Source: an uncultured Candidatus Saccharibacteria bacterium (lineage in GTDB: Bacteria > Patescibacteriota > Minisyncoccia > Phycocordibacterales > Phycocordibacteraceae). Taken from it: DNA of 64,000 nucleotides. The position numbers and the translations under genes were made by a program. Location of the stretch: NCBI GenBank assembly GCA_964402535.1, contig CAYOCH010000001.1, positions 72,286-136,285 of the forward strand, written 5' to 3'. A model generated the notes under the pieces. The model had not been told where the DNA came from, searched no databases, and saw only the letters and a program-made list of their open reading frames with translations. Positions 19,778-55,286 of this stretch are shown piece after piece; positions within the stretch are counted from its first letter, which is position 1; the number at the start of each line of letters is the position of its first letter.

Positions 19778-19993
19778 GTGATGAAATTATACACTTTGCG
19801 CGAACCCACTTCGCACGCGCCGAGCGCGTGGTGACTCGGGACTAATGCGTACGCTCCGATCGCGCCTCGCCCGCGCTCGCGGACTCGCGCGGGCAAACCC
19901 AAAATTTCCTTGCATTTTCTCCTCGGCTCCTCCCCCGACCCCTCCGCCGAAAGGCGAAAAAGGATGGAAAGGAAATTTTTGGTTTGCGTCGCC
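19778..19993. repeat. IR1-L (~215 bp), perfect reverse complement of 22189-22403
   Basis: identical 70-80 aa spurious ORFs on opposite strands (19768-20010 minus and 22124-22408 plus); direct sequence comparison. Confidence 0.9.
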
Positions 19994-20197
19994 TTTTGAA
20001 AACTCCACAAGGGGCAACAAAGTATTCACATTGAAGCCCCTTGCTCCGTAATCAAAAGGCGACCCGAGGCGCAATACACAGCGGTCTGCGCTAGGGCGCA
20101 GTCAGTTTTGATATGTGCTTGGCCCACCCGCCCAGTCCGCGCACAACCAGCCCCGCCGTTTTAGGAAACATTATAAAACGGCGGGGCTGGCTCCCTA

Positions 20198-20548
20198 TCA
20201 GCCTGAATGAAAATCCGACTGTTTTTTATGTGCCCCCGTGTATTCTGGTAGCACTTTCTCAATTTTTCTTTTGTAAAACTTCCTTACAGAAACATCTTTC
20301 TGGAATAAAAAATGATCTTCCGTGAAAGTACCGTCTTTTTTCTTATACCTAAGGCCTATCAAAATGCAATCTTTCGCGCTGGTTGGTATTGAATATGTGA
20401 CATGGTCAAATACACCATCTTTTTGTCTCAATTTTATTCCATGTTTATTTAGAACTTTCAGAAAGATTTCTGCAGTTGGCTTTTCCAAGCTGCCACTGTA
20501 AATACTATCGGTGATATGTTTTATCTCACCATAAGAATCATCTTTCAT
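20198..20548 (-). CDS. hypothetical protein (island cargo, 116 aa)
   Basis: low-GC ORF, last gene of the minus-strand cargo operon. Confidence 0.45.
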   Translation of the reverse strand: MKDDSYGEIKHITDSIYSGSLEKPTAEIFLKVLNKHGIKLRQKDGVFDHVTYSIPTSAKDCILIGLRYKKKDGTFTEDHFLFQKDVSVRKFYKRKIEKVLPEYTGAHKKQSDFHSG

Positions 20549-20575
20549 AATTCTAAGCCAGACAATGACCGATCT

Positions 20576-20965
20576 TTAACTGACGGATTTTGAGGCTGTA
20601 TTACTTTCGTCTTTTTTTGAATCCCAAGGAAGTGTCTTAGAAAAAGCGATGAAATAAGCAATCACTGCCCACGCTGGTATAACAACATTCGGAAATGGAT
20701 CGTTGACCAGGTCAGCTCTCTTAGTAAGAACCGTCATTATAATAATGATTATTACGGCAATGAGCTCAAGAGTCTTTCTCAGTGTTGTTTCTTTCGCGAG
20801 ACCAAGTTTTCGCTTTTTAGCGGACATGTACGCAATTGAGCCAAGAACCATAAACCATCCCCCAACAAGTAAGCTGCCGTTGACTTGACCTGCTCCACCC
20901 AAAAGTGCGAAAAGCCCAAGCACTAAAGCCGCATAAGAACCCCAGAAATTTTTATAGTCTTTCAT
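20576..20965 (-). CDS. hypothetical membrane protein (island cargo, 129 aa, ~4 TM)
   Basis: hydrophobic profile; low GC. Confidence 0.45.
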   Translation of the reverse strand: MKDYKNFWGSYAALVLGLFALLGGAGQVNGSLLVGGWFMVLGSIAYMSAKKRKLGLAKETTLRKTLELIAVIIIIIMTVLTKRADLVNDPFPNVVIPAWAVIAYFIAFSKTLPWDSKKDESNTASKSVS

Positions 20966-20977
20966 ATATAAATTATT

Positions 20978-21889
20978 CTAAAAACAATTTATCGTTGCTA
21001 CTCCGCCTCCGGCAGACTGGACGGTGCAAGAAGTGGAGCGAGGAACCGCCACGGGTGCGGTAGACTGCGTGAGCGTGGAAGAATACATGTTGTAATCTGA
21101 GACAAACGATGCAGCAAATCCCTGGAATGCATTCAACACTGTGTAGGTATCGGTCGGTGTTTGGTAGTTTAGGAAATACGAAAGCGGTTGAGATTGTAAA
21201 TTTGCTAAATCTGACTGCGCCTTTTCAATGATTGACTTTGTAGGCGCTTGTTGATTCATGATGCGTGTGATTCGCAGATTCGTCAGATTTCGCAAAGCAA
21301 CCGCTACCTGACTGTTATTGTTTGCGAGCGCATTTAGCACACCATTCATGCTGTCTATATCAGACGTCTGAAGATTGTAGAGGTATGTATAGCTAGAAAT
21401 TATTTTGTTGAGGGTGCCGATAGCGTCATTTTTTACTAAAACAGCAGCGGACAAATCTTGTGTCTGGGTTTGTGTCTGATTTTGGACTGGCAGATTTTGG
21501 TTTTGCGCTTGTTGTGTTTTTGATTGGCAATATGCTTTCCCGCCATCCCCAGGACATACAAAATCACTTCCAGACGGACAGGAAGAATAGTAGGTGCCGT
21601 TACAAAGGGTAGAATTTTTTGGCACGGCGGCTTCTGTCTTCGTGGACACACTCTGGCCTTTGTTGGTCGGTACCGTTTGAGGAGAAATTTTTACATTTCC
21701 TGTCGTGCTAGTTGCAAGAGGCGAAACGTTATTTGGAGTGTTATTCGGAGTAAAGAAGGTTGACACCCGATTTGTAAAAGGAGAAAAGATATACCAAGAA
21801 AGCGGATTCCACCATGCTGCGAAAGCAACTTGTGGAATAACAAAGATCATTACAGCGCCGACTGCAAAAAGATTTTTATACCCTTTCAT
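20978..21889 (-). CDS. secreted S/T/N/Q-rich protein with Cys cluster (island cargo, 303 aa)
   Basis: signal peptide, CNGTYYSSCPSGSDFVCPGDGGKAYC cysteine cluster, QTQTQTQ low-complexity region. Confidence 0.5.
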   Translation of the reverse strand: MKGYKNLFAVGAVMIFVIPQVAFAAWWNPLSWYIFSPFTNRVSTFFTPNNTPNNVSPLATSTTGNVKISPQTVPTNKGQSVSTKTEAAVPKNSTLCNGTYYSSCPSGSDFVCPGDGGKAYCQSKTQQAQNQNLPVQNQTQTQTQDLSAAVLVKNDAIGTLNKIISSYTYLYNLQTSDIDSMNGVLNALANNNSQVAVALRNLTNLRITRIMNQQAPTKSIIEKAQSDLANLQSQPLSYFLNYQTPTDTYTVLNAFQGFAASFVSDYNMYSSTLTQSTAPVAVPRSTSCTVQSAGGGVATINCF

Positions 21890-21894
21890 GATTA

Positions 21895-22116
21895 TTATTT
21901 CAAAAAATAATTGATGTCTTTGTCGTAGAGCTTTGCGAATCGCTTGAGTTCCACGACATCGACCCTCTGCTGTCCCGATTCGACGTTCGAGATATGTGAC
22001 TGCGGCCGGCCAATCTTTTTGGCGACTTGCGTCTGGGTCAATCCGGCCTCAAGGCGAGCCGTCCGCAGTCTCTCGACAAAGACAGCATATTCCTTTGTTT
22101 GGATTGACTTCTTCAT
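21895..22116 (-). CDS. XRE-family helix-turn-helix transcriptional regulator
   Basis: LTQTQVAKKIGRPQSHISNVESGQQ HTH_3 pattern; first gene of the cargo operon. Confidence 0.7.
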   Translation of the reverse strand: MKKSIQTKEYAVFVERLRTARLEAGLTQTQVAKKIGRPQSHISNVESGQQRVDVVELKRFAKLYDKDINYFLK

Positions 22117-22188
22117 ATGGTAAATGGTCTATCTAAGAAGTCAATATCCAAAGTTTGGATATTCTCGTGCTAAGCTGAATAGGACCTC

Positions 22189-22403
22189 GGCGACGCAAAC
22201 CAAAAATTTCCTTTCCATCCTTTTTCGCCTTTCGGCGGAGGGGTCGGGGGAGGAGCCGAGGAGAAAATGCAAGGAAATTTTGGGTTTGCCCGCGCGAGTC
22301 CGCGAGCGCGGGCGAGGCGCGATCGGAGCGTACGCATTAGTCCCGAGTCACCACGCGCTCGGCGCGTGCGAAGTGGGTTCGCGCAAAGTGTATAATTTCA
22401 TCA
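22189..22403. repeat. IR1-R (~215 bp)
   Basis: reverse complement of 19778-19993. Confidence 0.9.
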
Positions 22404-22515
22404 CATAGTAAAACATCTGCCGGAGTGAGTGCGGCGGAGCCGCGCCGCGAAGCGGCGCGGGAAGGAGCGGCGGCGAATTGCGCCCTGCGGGCGCGGGCTA
22501 ATTCGGAGGGCGGGC
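22403..22515. repeat. IR2-L (~113 bp), reverse complement of 23993-24105
   Basis: direct sequence comparison; lies immediately upstream of the recombinase start. Confidence 0.9.
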
Positions 22516-22576
22516 AGGATGCAAGAAATGAAATCGGAAATGGTACTTGTCGGTTTTGAATCCAAAATCTATTTAT

Positions 22577-24166
22577 ATGTCGGCTAAACCAAAATATTTT
22601 CTCTACGCGCGCAAAAGCACCGAGGACGACGACAGGCAAGTGATGTCCATTGAGGCGCAACTTTTCGAGCTACGCGAGTATGCGCGCAGAGAAAATCTTG
22701 AAATTCTTGAGGAATTTCAAGAGTCGAAAAGCGCAAAGAGCCCGGGGCGGGATATTTTCGGCAGAATGATGATGCGCGTCGAGGGTATGCAGGGCGTCGG
22801 GATTTTAGCGTGGCATCCTGACCGATTGGCGAGAAATAGCATTGACGGCGGACGCATCATCTACGCCGTGGACACTTCGCGTATTGTCTCTTTGCGCTTT
22901 CCGACATTTTGGTTTGAGCCGACGCCGCAGGGGCTCTTTATGTTGCAAGTGGCGTTCGGCCAGTCGAAATATTACAGCGACAATCTCACACAGAACGTCG
23001 AACGAGGGTTCCGCCAAAAACTGCGCCGCGGCGAGTGGCTGACGCGCGCTCCCTTTGGCTATGTGAATAATCCGCGCACGCGGAATATCGAACCCGACCC
23101 CGTGAAGTCGCGGGTCGTGGTGCGCGCGTTCGAGGAGTACGCCAAAGGATTGCACACGCTGGTTTCGTTGGGGCAGTTTTTGGCGGAACACGGCGTTGTG
23201 ACCCGCGCCGGAACGCCACTTGGCAAAGCTTCCGTGGCGAGATTGCTTTCCAATCGCGCGTATCTCGGACTTACCAAACATCACGGCGAATTTTTCCCCG
23301 GAAGCTTTGCGCCAATTCTTTCTGCGCCACTGTTTGAAGCCGTCCAAAAGAAATTGCATGAGCGAGCGCGTCCCCGTCACAGCCGCGTCCGCCATGACTT
23401 TCCATTTACGGGTCTGTTTCGGTGCGGCGAGTGCGGTGCAATGATTACCGCACAGTGGACTACAGGTCGTCATGGCGGACGCTACCGCTACTACCGCTGT
23501 ACCAAAAAGAATGGCACGTGCGGTCAAGGATATTTGCAGGAGGACGCGCTCGTCATGCAGACAAAGGAACGGCTTCAAGCAGTGTCGCTCCCCGACGACT
23601 GGGCAGAGTACATGCTCGGCAAGGCCGAGGAATGGGACAAGGCGGACAAGCAGTCGTCGGGGAGCCATGCCGAGCGACTGAAATCCGAACTAAAGGAAAT
23701 CGAGCGAAAGCTTGATGCGCTCGTTGATTTGCACCTGAACGGCGATATTGAGCGCGCGAGGTATCTGGCGAAAAAGGACGCACTGATGCGCCTCAAGCTC
23801 TCGCTCGATACAAAATTATCAGCCGCCCGACACGGCAGAAAGAATTGGGTCGAACCCCTGCGGCAGTGGATTTTGGATTCAAAACGCGCGGGGTTTCTGG
23901 CTTCCAGTACAAACTACGCGGAAATCCGCGAGTTTGTCCGTTCCTTCGGAACGAACCCCGCGATGCGCGACAAGACCATTTCGATTTCATTTTGCCCGCC
24001 CTCCGAATTAGCCCGCGCCCGCAGGGCGCAATTCGCCGCCGCTCCTTCCCGCGCCGCTTCGCGGCGCGGCTCCGCCGCACTCACTCCGGCAGATGTTTTA
24101 CTATGTGACCCCACGGGGAATCGAACCCCGATTTACGCCGTGAAAGGGCGCTGTCCTAACCGTTAG
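22577..24166 (+). CDS. large serine recombinase (resolvase/invertase N-domain plus recombinase and zinc-ribbon domains)
   Basis: YARKSTEDDD...SIEAQ catalytic Ser region, CGECGAMITAQW...YRCTKKNGTCGQ zinc ribbon; ORF C-terminus reads through IR2-R into the tRNA-Glu gene, so the true C-terminus is uncertain. Confidence 0.85.
   Translation: MSAKPKYFLYARKSTEDDDRQVMSIEAQLFELREYARRENLEILEEFQESKSAKSPGRDIFGRMMMRVEGMQGVGILAWHPDRLARNSIDGGRIIYAVDTSRIVSLRFPTFWFEPTPQGLFMLQVAFGQSKYYSDNLTQNVERGFRQKLRRGEWLTRAPFGYVNNPRTRNIEPDPVKSRVVVRAFEEYAKGLHTLVSLGQFLAEHGVVTRAGTPLGKASVARLLSNRAYLGLTKHHGEFFPGSFAPILSAPLFEAVQKKLHERARPRHSRVRHDFPFTGLFRCGECGAMITAQWTTGRHGGRYRYYRCTKKNGTCGQGYLQEDALVMQTKERLQAVSLPDDWAEYMLGKAEEWDKADKQSSGSHAERLKSELKEIERKLDALVDLHLNGDIERARYLAKKDALMRLKLSLDTKLSAARHGRKNWVEPLRQWILDSKRAGFLASSTNYAEIREFVRSFGTNPAMRDKTISISFCPPSELARARRAQFAAAPSRAASRRGSAALTPADVLLCDPTGNRTPIYAVKGRCPNR
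23993..24105. repeat. IR2-R (~113 bp)
   Basis: reverse complement of 22403-22515; ends exactly at the tRNA-Glu 3' terminus. Confidence 0.9.
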
Positions 24167-24177
24167 ACGATAGGGCC
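24106..24177 (-). tRNA. tRNA-Glu (anticodon TTC)
   Basis: cloverleaf by eye: acceptor GGCCCTA/TGGGGTC (two G-U pairs), anticodon loop CTTTCAC, T-arm CGGGGTTCGATTCCCCG; CCA not encoded. Confidence 0.8.
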
Positions 24178-40932: not shown

Positions 40933-41296
40933 GTATAGTGCGCTCGGACCGAGCTAGACGACCGCTCCGTGAGCGATCACGGGGAGGAAAGTCCGAACAT
41001 GCTCCCGCGCGCAAGCGAGGGAAACCGGGTAGCGGGTAACGCCCGTCGTCCGCGAGGATAGAGGTGCCTACAGTGACGTCGAAGGCGAAAGCCGGAGACT
41101 CCCCTGCCTGCCGGTAGGCAGGCTTCGGGGAGAATCCTGCCGAGAGGCAGGGGTGCAACGAGCAAATCCTTACCTGCATGCAAGGCCGTATCGCCAGTGC
41201 TTCGCACTGGCGGGGTGCCGCTTGAGCCCGCCGGCGACGCCGGGCCCAGATAAATGGTCGTCCACGACAGAATTCGGCTTATCGGCTCGGTCCGCA
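40933..41296 (+). ncRNA. rnpB: RNase P RNA (bacterial type A)
   Basis: P4 strands GGAGGAAAGTCCGAAC and ACAGAATTCGGCTTATCGG covary with consensus (GG becomes AA paired with CC becoming TT); GGGTAACGCC region; P1 CGGACCGAGC/GCTCGGTCCG; TATAGT -10 just upstream. Confidence 0.75.
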
Positions 41297-41302
41297 TACA
41301 TG

Positions 41303-50716: not shown

Positions 50717-50719
50717 GTG

Positions 50720-50792
50720 TGCGCCCACCACGACTCGAACGTGGAACCGCCGAGGTATAAGCTCGGTGCTCTAACCATTGAGCTATGGGCGC
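50720..50792 (-). tRNA. tRNA-Ile (anticodon TAT)
   Basis: GCGCCCA/TGGGCGC acceptor, anticodon stem CCGAG/CTCGG with loop CTTATAC. Confidence 0.65.
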
Positions 50793-54765: not shown

Positions 54766-55168
54766 GGGGGTGACCGGCTTTGACGGTCTGTCCTTTGAAA
54801 GACGTGCGACGCAGTGCCCGCTCGACGACACTTTAATCCGACGAGCAACCAAACTTGCCAAGAACACTCTTGCAAGCGTGAAGTCCCCGTACTTCGGTGC
54901 AAAGGACTTCGCGTTCGCGTACGCGGTCGCCTAACGGCCACTCGCCTGCGCGACATCTCGCTCTCCGGGCTCCCGCAGCCGCGGGCTGAGGTGGAATGGT
55001 CTGCAGGATCTATGTCCGGCCTCCCGCCCGGCGCATCTAGATCAGGGATCGGAGCGGAACGGTTTCGTCTTGATTTCCACGCCCGCTCTTAAATCCAATC
55101 AAGCCTACGCGTCGTAGAAACGCTTTCAAAGCCAGATTCGGACTCGAGTTCGACTCTCGACACCTCCA
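54766..55168 (+). ncRNA. ssrA: tmRNA (SsrA)
   Basis: 5' GGGGGTGACCGGCTTTGACGG, 3' T-arm TCGAGTTCGACTCTCGA plus acceptor CACCTCC-A; putative tag reading frame ...AKDFAFAYAVA-TAA; immediately downstream of smpB. Confidence 0.85.
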
Positions 55169-55286
55169 CTCGATATGCGCGGCCGCCCAGAGGGCGGCCG
55201 CGCGTTTGACTATGGCCCGGACATTCCGTATCGTACGAGCCGAACCTAGCCATTCCGGCAGAGGTACTAGTTCTTTAGGAGGAGCA

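Follow-up and report, generated by a model that had tools for sequence, protein, structure and literature searches.

Putative attachment segment, split at a tRNA-Glu 3' end and present as an intact inverted internal copy, in a serine recombinase element of an uncultured Saccharibacteria bacterium

The DNA analyzed here, a stretch of 64,000 nt from contig CAYOCH010000001.1 of an uncultured Candidatus Saccharibacteria bacterium (assembly GCA_964402535.1; hereafter, the window), carries a gene for a large serine recombinase (LSR) beside a tRNA-Glu gene, set among two pairs of long inverted repeats (IR) that probably delimit an integrative element. The recombinase gene (22577-24166, plus strand) encodes 529 aa from the ATG at 22577 to a stop codon at 24164-24166 and comprises, according to Pfam, (i) a Resolvase domain (PF00239, residues 8-154, E = 4e-20), (ii) a Recombinase domain (PF07508, residues 175-263), and (iii) a zinc ribbon (Zn_ribbon_recom, PF13408, residues 276-328). 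Residues R12 and S14 of the YARKS motif and the cysteines C283, C286, C308, and C315 are invariant in 20 homologs, and the predicted protein, which displays the defining domains and follows the attachment (att) site logic of the LSR family, is by its sequence a member of it. The nearest LSR of solved structure, SPbeta SprA, is distant, the match being limited to the N-terminal 235 aa (E = 5e-8), and no record of the exact protein sequence was found. The tRNA-Glu(UUC) gene lies on the minus strand (24105-24177; 24106-24177 in Rfam), and a cargo segment (19994-22188, minus strand) displays a low GC content of 36-46%, compared with 58-66% in the flanks.

A repeat search of the window defines the two pairs of arms. 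IR1 comprises 216-nt arms at 19778-19993 (IR1-L, arm A) and 22189-22404 (IR1-R, arm A') that are 100% complementary, and IR2 comprises 124-nt arms at 22401-22524 (IR2-L, arm B) and 23985-24108 (IR2-R, arm B') that are 98% complementary. An earlier, sequence-only reading of this DNA had described 22403-22515 as the reverse complement of 23993-24105, which is borne out as the perfectly matching part of the longer IR2 arms; past this part a weaker similarity extends to 22530 and 23977, with a 2-nt indel and several mismatches. The same reading had placed the start of IR2-L at the very nucleotide where IR1-R ends, a placement that has to be corrected, the two arms instead overlapping by 4 nt, TCAC, at 22401-22404. 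It also had IR2-R end at the tRNA-Glu 3' terminus; the arm does reach this end, but it overlaps the tRNA gene by 4 nt (GTGA, 24105-24108). Its proposal that an alignment of the four repeat copies might disclose a shared core proved sound, GTGA/TCAC being common to IR1 and IR2, with GTGA opening IR1-L (19778-19781) and closing IR2-R. Compared with two sister elements, the arm-identical tract of IR2 spans from the core to an inner boundary, TGCCCGCCC, which coincides with the limit given earlier, and at this inner edge the upstream and downstream copies differ identically in all three elements.

IR1-R and IR2-L form a single contiguous segment of ~340 bp, and IR2-R followed by IR1-L, closed at GTGA, constitutes its exact reverse complement. 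Within the window, matches to the 342-nt stretch 22189-22530 are confined to these repeat sites, and repeats of such length and identity cannot have originated by chance. Three sites can be assigned to the arms, including (i) a putative attL at the outer end of IR1-L, comprising the left flank, the core GTGA at 19778-19781, and a half-site Pr (TGAAATTATACACTTTGCGCGAACC); (ii) a putative attR at the outer end of IR2-R, comprising a half-site Pl (GGCAGATGTTTTACTAT), the core GTGA at 24105-24108, and the tRNA half; and (iii) a putative intact internal attP (22375-22430, minus strand), of which IR1-R supplies the left part and which reads Pr', core TCAC at 22401-22404, and Pl', over an estimated extent of ~55 bp. 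IR2-L is noncoding here and contains GC-rich hairpins. The acceptor 3' strand and T-arm of the tRNA gene would provide an attB-type half-site. Two independent Logan assemblies of the same organism (SRR5161805 and SRR5161795) confirm the left element junction; both stop at window position 19807, 30 nt inside IR1-L, the point at which a graph built with k = 31 must break at a true repeat.

The account that we consider highly probable is that the four arms represent two copies of one attP-bearing segment, one of them split by integration and the other preserved intact, inverted and internal; the suggestion in the sequence-only reading that the repeats may be att-derived arms holds in this specific form. 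The region 19778-24108 would be a 4.33-kb integrative element inserted at the tRNA-Glu 3' end, and its free, presumably circular form would contain the ~340-bp segment U (B'-core-A) twice, in inverted orientation, with attP at the B'/A boundary. Copy 1 would separate the 3' end of the recombinase gene from the end of the cargo, and copy 2 would separate the divergent promoters of recombinase and cargo. The LSR would recombine copy 1 with the tRNA-Glu 3' end (attB, reconstructed as …TATTATAACCTA-GTGA-CCCCACGGGGAATCG…), with a crossover inside the common GTGA, probably in its last two bases, splitting copy 1 into IR1-L (attL) and IR2-R (attR). Because copy 2 would stay intact as IR1-R|IR2-L, two seemingly nested repeat pairs meet at one stretch and at the tRNA. 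Three parts of this account are inferred from the sequence, namely that the free form is circular, that the LSR is the catalyst, and where the crossover falls. The insertion leaves the mature tRNA-Glu sequence unchanged, the 3' trailer alone being replaced.

The same arrangement recurs in other genomes, for which 80 genome loci and 80 metagenome loci (designated by L numbers) were fetched and each compared with itself. Homologs of the recombinase number in the thousands, the best 120 being 64-92% identical; their named sources are almost all Patescibacteria, and many lie on contigs of 1.7-6 kb. At least 564 pattern matches were confirmed among GTDB species genomes (564 of the first 600 matches listed) and at least 591 among metagenome contigs (591 of the 600 matches listed). 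The recurrent layout comprises IR1 (100-430 bp) around a variable cargo, IR2 (~60-170 bp) around the recombinase gene, and a tRNA or transfer-messenger RNA (tmRNA) gene on the opposite strand, over an element size of 3-8 kb; the RNA gene follows IR2-R immediately in about 100 loci. The layout is found within long contigs (L078, 640 kb; L028, 831 kb) and, in a decayed state, in a complete chromosome (L031, CP060229.1).

The relation among the three sites, in which attR equals Pl, core, and tRNA, the internal site equals Pl, core, and Pr, and attL equals flank, core, and Pr, is exact wherever all sites are assembled (about two dozen loci), and the part of it that links attR to the internal site holds in ~64 genome and ~45 metagenome further elements. 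At tRNA or tmRNA 3' ends, the relation of attL, internal attP, and attR is seen in ~110 elements, nearly all of them from Patescibacteria. The targets include tRNA-Glu, Ser, Ala, Gly, Lys, Leu, Pro, Arg, Gln, Ile, Tyr, Trp, and Asp, as well as tmRNA. The core common to element and target, a direct repeat of 4-6 nt, tracks the target: GTGA goes with Glu, GCGG with Ser, GTGG with Ala and tmRNA, GTCC with Lys, GTGC with Gly and Leu, and GTCG with Pro; the Ala and tmRNA targets have an acceptor end in common.

The half-sites on either side of the core carry a further signature. On the element side, Pr shows family-wide conservation (…AATnATAnCCTTTGCGCGAACC…), and GAAGTTTC is found in Pl. Among 64 elements, 56 have the motif CGAA[CT] starting at nt 19-20 of Pr, and 44 have it starting at nt 14 of the tRNA half, within the T-arm (GAATCGAACC), so that CGAAC lies 5-6 bp nearer the center in the tRNA half than in the element half. 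In LI integrase, the attB motif bound by the zinc-ribbon domain is shifted 5 bp toward the center relative to attP (Rutherford et al., PMC3783163), and agreement with this rule marks the tRNA half as the attB-type side and arm A as the attP-type side. Over 109 unique internal sites, dyad symmetry has a weak maximum at the last 1-2 nt of the core, and the crossover dinucleotide of the window element is probably GA. Targeting guided by RNA, of the IS110 bridge-RNA type, was considered and rejected, the longest match between arm and tRNA half averaging 7.8 nt compared with 7.0 nt after shuffling. The arm motifs do not change with the target tRNA, and target choice appears to rest on the universal T-arm together with the 4-6 nt core.

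The recombinase gene itself extends into this architecture. The observation in the sequence-only reading that the open reading frame (ORF) runs through IR2-R into the tRNA gene is correct, the stop codon at 24164-24166 lying in the antisense of tRNA-Glu. The further proposal that the C-terminal ~55 aa are an artefact of the repeat fits one part of the tail and not another: the first ~9 residues encoded by IR2-R (FCPPSELAR; FCPPSxFAR in the family) are conserved as protein, the ~30 residues that follow are not, though their underlying DNA forms hairpins, and the last 20 are antisense of the tRNA and depend on the integration state. An earlier true stop, to be sought by homolog alignment, does not exist in the family, as no homolog stops earlier. 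The ORF extends past the outer end of IR2-R and across the att core in 60 of 64 loci, and the Pl half-site is read in the same frame, as …EVSxCD, in 114 of 117 complete homologs, a count made at the protein level in place of a regular-expression version of the codon phase that proved too noisy. Past the core, the tails of the homologs correspond to the antisense of the tRNA T-arm (…PTGNRTP…), and an alternative tail running into the A arm (…CDLILTFARTFFEGQ) is found in 10 of the 120 best-scoring homologs; the free-form tail expected from the sequence of the window element is …CDEIIHFARTHFARAERVVTRD. Since attP lies inside the recombinase ORF, integration would replace its last ~20 codons. Judged across these homologs, the tail is not a one-off annotation artefact, and its last ~20 codons are set by the sequence that adjoins the core.

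Several observations weigh against the account of a split and an intact attP segment. No circular form, empty site, or inversion isoform of the window element was recovered, and the exact 27-mer of the site has no match in JGI metagenomes. The flanking 466-aa peptidase has its closest homolog outside the organism at only 50% identity, so that there is no sister genome for an empty-site comparison; the Logan unitigs show no branch at the core. Since the cargo is variable and no gene besides the recombinase is shared across elements, there is no conserved recombination directionality factor (RDF), which leaves excision unexplained. The dyad symmetry of the internal sites is weak (0.32 versus a background of 0.25). 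If both attP copies were equally usable, or if flipping were free, the two recombinase orientations ought both to be frequent, and the predominance of one of them (see below) demands an extra assumption, such as selection or a preference in cis. Short-read assemblers may also follow wrong paths through repeats longer than k, and some of the loci with flipped cassettes or A-type tails are possibly artefacts. As for circles, among relatives the 4.3-4.6-kb contigs with the alternative tail (L081-L083) lack terminal overlaps and are not circular; because the 340-bp copies are identical, the junction of a circle would look like the internal copy in short-read contigs.

The two segments bounded by the repeats differ in orientation among relatives. 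The recombinase gene points toward the tRNA in about 96% of ~110 evaluable loci (~25 to 1). In four others (~4%), L017 at tRNA-Glu, L083 at tRNA-Ile, L123 at tRNA-Ser, and L168 at tRNA-Asn, the recombinase cassette is inverted and the attR-type junction is intact; a fifth, L080, is doubtful. In these loci, Pl and core join the tRNA in the normal way, but what follows the arm is the 5' side of the gene. The arms of L168 are 100% identical, whereas those of L083 have diverged, and a repeat-induced misassembly is therefore excluded in the latter. Regarding the cargo, its unique 3' end in L086, a 92% identical relative, adjoins the internal site and lies on the strand opposite to that in the window; the orientation in L044 is that of the window. 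The 216-nt arm that the L086 flip involves is longer than typical k-mers. Both segments are found in both orientations among relatives, with one recombinase orientation dominant. Of the 'self-inverting gene' put forward in the sequence-only reading, the inversion across IR2 stands, as it occurs in 4 of about 110 loci, and the recombinase is a possible catalyst.

A stronger version of this idea, in which the 1.46-kb segment bounded by IR2-L and IR2-R serves as a regulated ON/OFF switch flipped by the LSR or RecA, is conceivable, and we hold it to be improbable without discarding it. In the common orientation the gene would converge on the tRNA gene, with antisense silencing and a tRNA-derived tail, and in the flipped one it would lie downstream of the tRNA promoter and regain the tail of the free element. 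The four inverted loci with an intact attR-type junction, including L168 with its identical arms, speak for such a switch. A reaction between the internal site and attR would, moreover, regenerate both sites, because the exchanged half-sites are identical, and the tail would change with orientation because the ORF crosses the core; the alternative tail is carried by 10 of the 120 best-scoring homologs. LI integrase performs efficient intramolecular recombination of attP with attP (PMC3783163); in A118, recombination of attP with attP stays under 5% of the attP x attB rate, and reactions of attL or attR with attP have not been detected for characterized LSRs (PMC3556126), which counts against the switch. 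So do the dominance of one orientation, the lack of isoforms for the window element, and the promoters, as plausible elements are seen by eye inside the cassette and a scan found none outside it or in the arms. A switch also leaves unexplained why a 216-nt A arm and the cargo are bracketed as well.

The arms evolve in concert. In the IR2 arms of the window element and its two sisters (recombinases 89-92% identical), all ~11 substitutions are common to both arms and none is arm-specific; the IR1 arms of the window element (Glu), L044 (Ser), and L032 likewise share their changes, including a 10-nt insertion and other indels. This sharing implies that the arms are homogenized faster than they diverge, within sharp boundaries. 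Across 73 pairs of IR2 arms, identity is 100% in 30, at least 95% in 56, and below 90% in 5, the most decayed pairs being 77-83% identical (L013, L031).

Both arms also contain hairpins. In the B arm, the stems vary between elements yet stay self-complementary, as in GCGCGCC-TTCG-GCGCGC and TTTTGGC-TTCC-GCAAAA, by inspection and with no statistical test. Arm A' contains a long imperfect hairpin (22195-22290, plus strand), mirrored in IR1-L at 19892-19987, with a conserved G-rich motif, GGAGGGGTCGGGGGAGGA, at 22237-22254. The family form of this motif, GGAGGGGTYKGGGGAGGA, occurs within the ~95-nt A-arm hairpin in 36 distinct copies in related loci (in the window at 22237-22254 on the plus strand and at 19928-19945 on the minus strand) and holds two Shine-Dalgarno-like GGAGG sequences. 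The stems of the A-arm hairpin differ between subfamilies, its apical part being inverted in some elements, and the G-rich strand folds better as RNA, with 5-14 G.U pairs. GC-rich arm hairpins persist even in AT-rich elements. A small ORF on the G-rich strand (ATG at 22267, 42 aa) was rejected as coding because relatives do not keep its frame. A search of Rfam at E <= 1 gave no match to the arms, and the matches at gathering level in the window are limited to tRNAs, tmRNA, and RNase P. RNAalifold applied to 37 B arms and 15 A arms gave essentially no consensus structure, because the alignments are too heterogeneous.

These properties bear on a second explanation, in which the element spreads as single-stranded DNA, for example through natural transformation, a process reported to be widespread in Patescibacteria (PMC12455944), and the internal copy pairs A with A' and B with B' as a 340-nt splint that joins the 5' and 3' ends. 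Flap trimming and ligation could then remake the circle without an excisionase, the same hairpin signals, for priming or as promoters, would be present on whichever strand enters, and mismatch repair of the stem would homogenize the arms. In its favor, the arms reach precisely to the core, and the internal copy is unbroken; an LSR att site is exceeded 5-8 times in length by the arms; the ~340-nt segment of the window folds well as single-stranded DNA (z = -2.98); the hairpin stems of both arms vary but remain self-complementary by eye; and the concerted evolution has sharp boundaries. Neither a conserved RDF nor a close relative of the recombinase in IMG/VR was found (the sole match there is 23% identical), and the family is confined to a phylum in which competence and pilus genes are reported to be prevalent (PMC12455944). 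Against it, the explanation is entirely inferential and leaves both the orientation bias and the ORF that crosses the core unexplained, the G.U asymmetry of the G-rich hairpin would suit RNA equally, and RNAalifold returned no consensus on its heterogeneous alignments. We know of no precedent for a single-strand splint in a serine recombinase element, which counts against it further, and on balance we find this explanation doubtful.

A third explanation, which we credit as little as the splint, is that an ancestral inverted duplication of attP is kept by gene conversion and has no function, the inversions being accidental by-products of homologous recombination. Gene conversion between repeats does yield concerted evolution, the flipped states are rare, and decayed copies exist, namely the pairs of 77-83% identity mentioned above. 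The duplication is nevertheless kept where the recombinases have diverged to 44-46% identity and across more than 12 different tRNAs and tmRNA, its inner boundaries are sharp and conserved, and its GC-rich hairpins are retained even in AT-rich elements; such deep retention, sharp boundaries, and kept hairpins indicate selection on the duplication. Lastly, an origin of the inverted repeats as chimeric joins or fold-back products of metagenome assembly, in which palindromic artefacts can arise and for which many related contigs do end at repeats, is effectively refuted by the identical layout in more than 100 loci, which come from many different projects and assemblers and extend to contigs of several hundred kb as well as a complete chromosome, by repeat ends that fall on a biologically meaningful core at the tRNA 3' end, and by the independent Logan unitigs at the left junction.

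Returning to the split and intact attP segments, the role of the internal copy can be inferred at best, and four candidates may be ranked, including (i) an invertible cassette for the recombinase, and for the cargo, whose flip would change its direction relative to the tRNA promoter and restore the free-form tail, a role that we place first, tentatively; (ii) an action in single-stranded DNA, for example after natural transformation, where the copy would pair with both ends and offer the same hairpins on either strand, which is slightly less likely; (iii) a function of the arm hairpins as insulators or terminators that face outward from either side of each cassette, a less likely role still; and (iv) no adaptive role, which we rank last as unlikely.

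The cargo of the window element comprises four ORFs on the minus strand: 20198-20548 (116 aa), 20576-20965 (129 aa), 20978-21889 (303 aa), and 21895-22116 (73 aa), the last encoding an XRE-type helix-turn-helix (HTH) protein. A weak match of the 129-aa product to DUF6609 is the only Pfam match among the three small proteins; Pfam detects no replication protein in the window cargo, and two of the small proteins look membrane-anchored by eye. The 73-aa HTH gene is directly preceded by a perfect 21-nt palindrome, AATATCCAAAGTTTGGATATT (22133-22153), and, adjoining it, a promoter-like TTGACT-16-TACCAT; a similar palindrome stands upstream of the HTH homolog in L053, and AATATCCAAAGTTTGGATATT is likely an operator. 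Immediately inside IR1-L, at the cargo 3' end, an imperfect hairpin (19988-20063) with 36-nt arms that are 75% complementary is kept beside the arm in L086 and L044 and is likely the terminator of the cargo.

Elements of the family carry variable small gene sets, the cargo being wholly different between close relatives. A homolog of the HTH protein is present in only 8 of 87 loci, the rest of the cargo being variable. The cargo of L084:892-6500 comprises a DNA methyltransferase and a ResIII/DEAD helicase and looks like a restriction-modification or defence set, and that of L086:1-3173 comprises TPR, zinc-ribbon, and trypsin-like proteins. Between the window element and the tRNA-Ser element L044, the A arm and the cargo 3' end (19788-20196 versus L044:5058-5465) are 93% identical, and the stretch from the internal arm into the recombinase gene (22189-23509 versus L044:6614-7924) is only 76% identical. 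What chiefly distinguishes the two is the core, together with the initial ~10 nt of the half-site. This pattern suggests that modules may reassort by cassette exchange at the att core, with easy retargeting.

Some target sites are occupied more than once. In L036:900-14400, three complete elements stand in tandem at one tRNA-Ser gene, separated by spacers of ~180 nt that repeat the tRNA-Ser 3' fragment and the left flank. In L032:4567-14889, two elements adjoin directly, which leads to a hybrid site formed by B' of one, the core, and A of the next; L059:416-3934 contains elements at neighboring tRNA-Glu and tRNA-Ser genes, and L084 looks like a piece of a tandem array. Five loci (L010, L050, L052, L063, and L116) are integrated at tmRNA 3' ends with a GGTGG core, as in relatives that target tRNA-Ala. 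In the window, no element occupies the tmRNA (54766-55171), the RNase P RNA (40946-41297), or any of seven other tRNA genes; at 50719-50792 lies a tRNA-Ile gene with the anticodon TAT, an uncommon bacterial isoacceptor of the type targeted in L083.

Comparison with known systems places the element among the LSR modules (phiC31, Bxb1, A118/LI, SPbeta SprA), with which it shares (i) the Resolvase, Recombinase, and zinc ribbon domains, (ii) an identity between element and target that is a 4-6 nt core and not a long direct repeat, and (iii) attP- and attB-type half-sites with a common motif offset by 5-6 bp. It differs from them in its target, a tRNA or tmRNA 3' end, in the location of attP inside the 3' end of the recombinase ORF, in a second intact attP, inverted and within 340-bp arms, in the lack of a conserved RDF (a frequent companion of LSRs, not a criterion of membership), in its small size, and in its absence from IMG/VR. 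Islander-type islands at tRNA genes likewise insert at tRNA or tmRNA 3' ends, keep the mature RNA, and form tandem arrays, as in L036 and L032. Such islands are reported to use tyrosine integrases, and the tRNA end is regenerated by a displaced direct-repeat fragment of tens of nt (PMC4383910). In contrast, the elements described here use a serine recombinase and duplicate only 4-6 nt.

With the Hin/Gin invertases the element shares a serine recombinase gene inside a segment bounded by inverted repeats; as for the occurrence of both orientations in nature, four flipped cassettes are seen among about 110 loci from different genomes. The hin gene itself lies inside a segment so bracketed. These invertases are, however, small (~190 aa) with a C-terminal HTH, 26-bp sites, and a Fis-dependent enhancer, compared with a 529-aa LSR and arms of 124 and 216 bp here, where the flanking sites differ in their outer halves (attP-type versus attR-type) and one orientation predominates. 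The yeast 2-micron circle, with FLP and FRT sites in 599-bp repeats, resembles the inferred small circle in its two inverted, target-bearing repeats that separate two segments, the recombinase on one segment, and both relative orientations among relatives. FLP, though, belongs to the tyrosine recombinases, and the 2-micron circle is a plasmid equipped with an origin and a means of amplification, whereas the present element is integrated in the chromosome and no replication gene or origin was identified in it.

The attP(+) of CTXphi offers another likeness, as two inverted att copies could form a duplex att site within one strand. CTXphi is a filamentous single-stranded DNA phage that relies on the host XerCD tyrosine recombinases and a single-strand exchange between sites ~90 nt apart, whereas here 1.5 and 2.2 kb lie between the copies, and cleavage by a serine recombinase would affect both strands. 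In SSV1-type integrases and in the integration-dependent immunity of mycobacteriophages, a protein whose coding sequence spans attP likewise has its C-terminus altered by integration. The protein concerned there is a tyrosine integrase or the product of a repressor gene, whereas here it would be the recombinase itself (60 of 64 loci). A full-text literature search, limited in extent, returned nothing that describes the family or an internal attP in inverted orientation, and an earlier description elsewhere is possible. What sets the element apart from known serine-integrase elements is above all the intact inverted copy of the attP segment.

Patescibacteria, also called the candidate phyla radiation (CPR), represent a large and mostly uncultured part of bacterial diversity in which gene exchange is poorly known, and this type of element is present in hundreds of their genomes. 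It would put a serine recombinase to use on tRNA and tmRNA ends, sites classically credited to tyrosine integrases. The closely related arms that serve tRNA-Glu and tRNA-Ser suggest an easily retargeted integrase family, with a possible use in genome engineering. The combination of an internal inverted attP, an ORF across attP, and no excisionase raises the testable question of how directionality and transfer may be controlled without accessory proteins. One speculative answer, to which we give modest weight, is a recombinase-only, excisionase-free element of ultra-small bacteria in which the C-terminus, encoded across attP, senses the integration state and the spare attP either flips the cassette between locked and active states or acts as an internal splint, and as a signal alike on both strands, through which a single-stranded copy acquired by natural transformation could re-circularize. 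If true, two att-bounded cassettes, one for the recombinase and one for the cargo, that invert and reassort would constitute a distinct class of modular integrative element.

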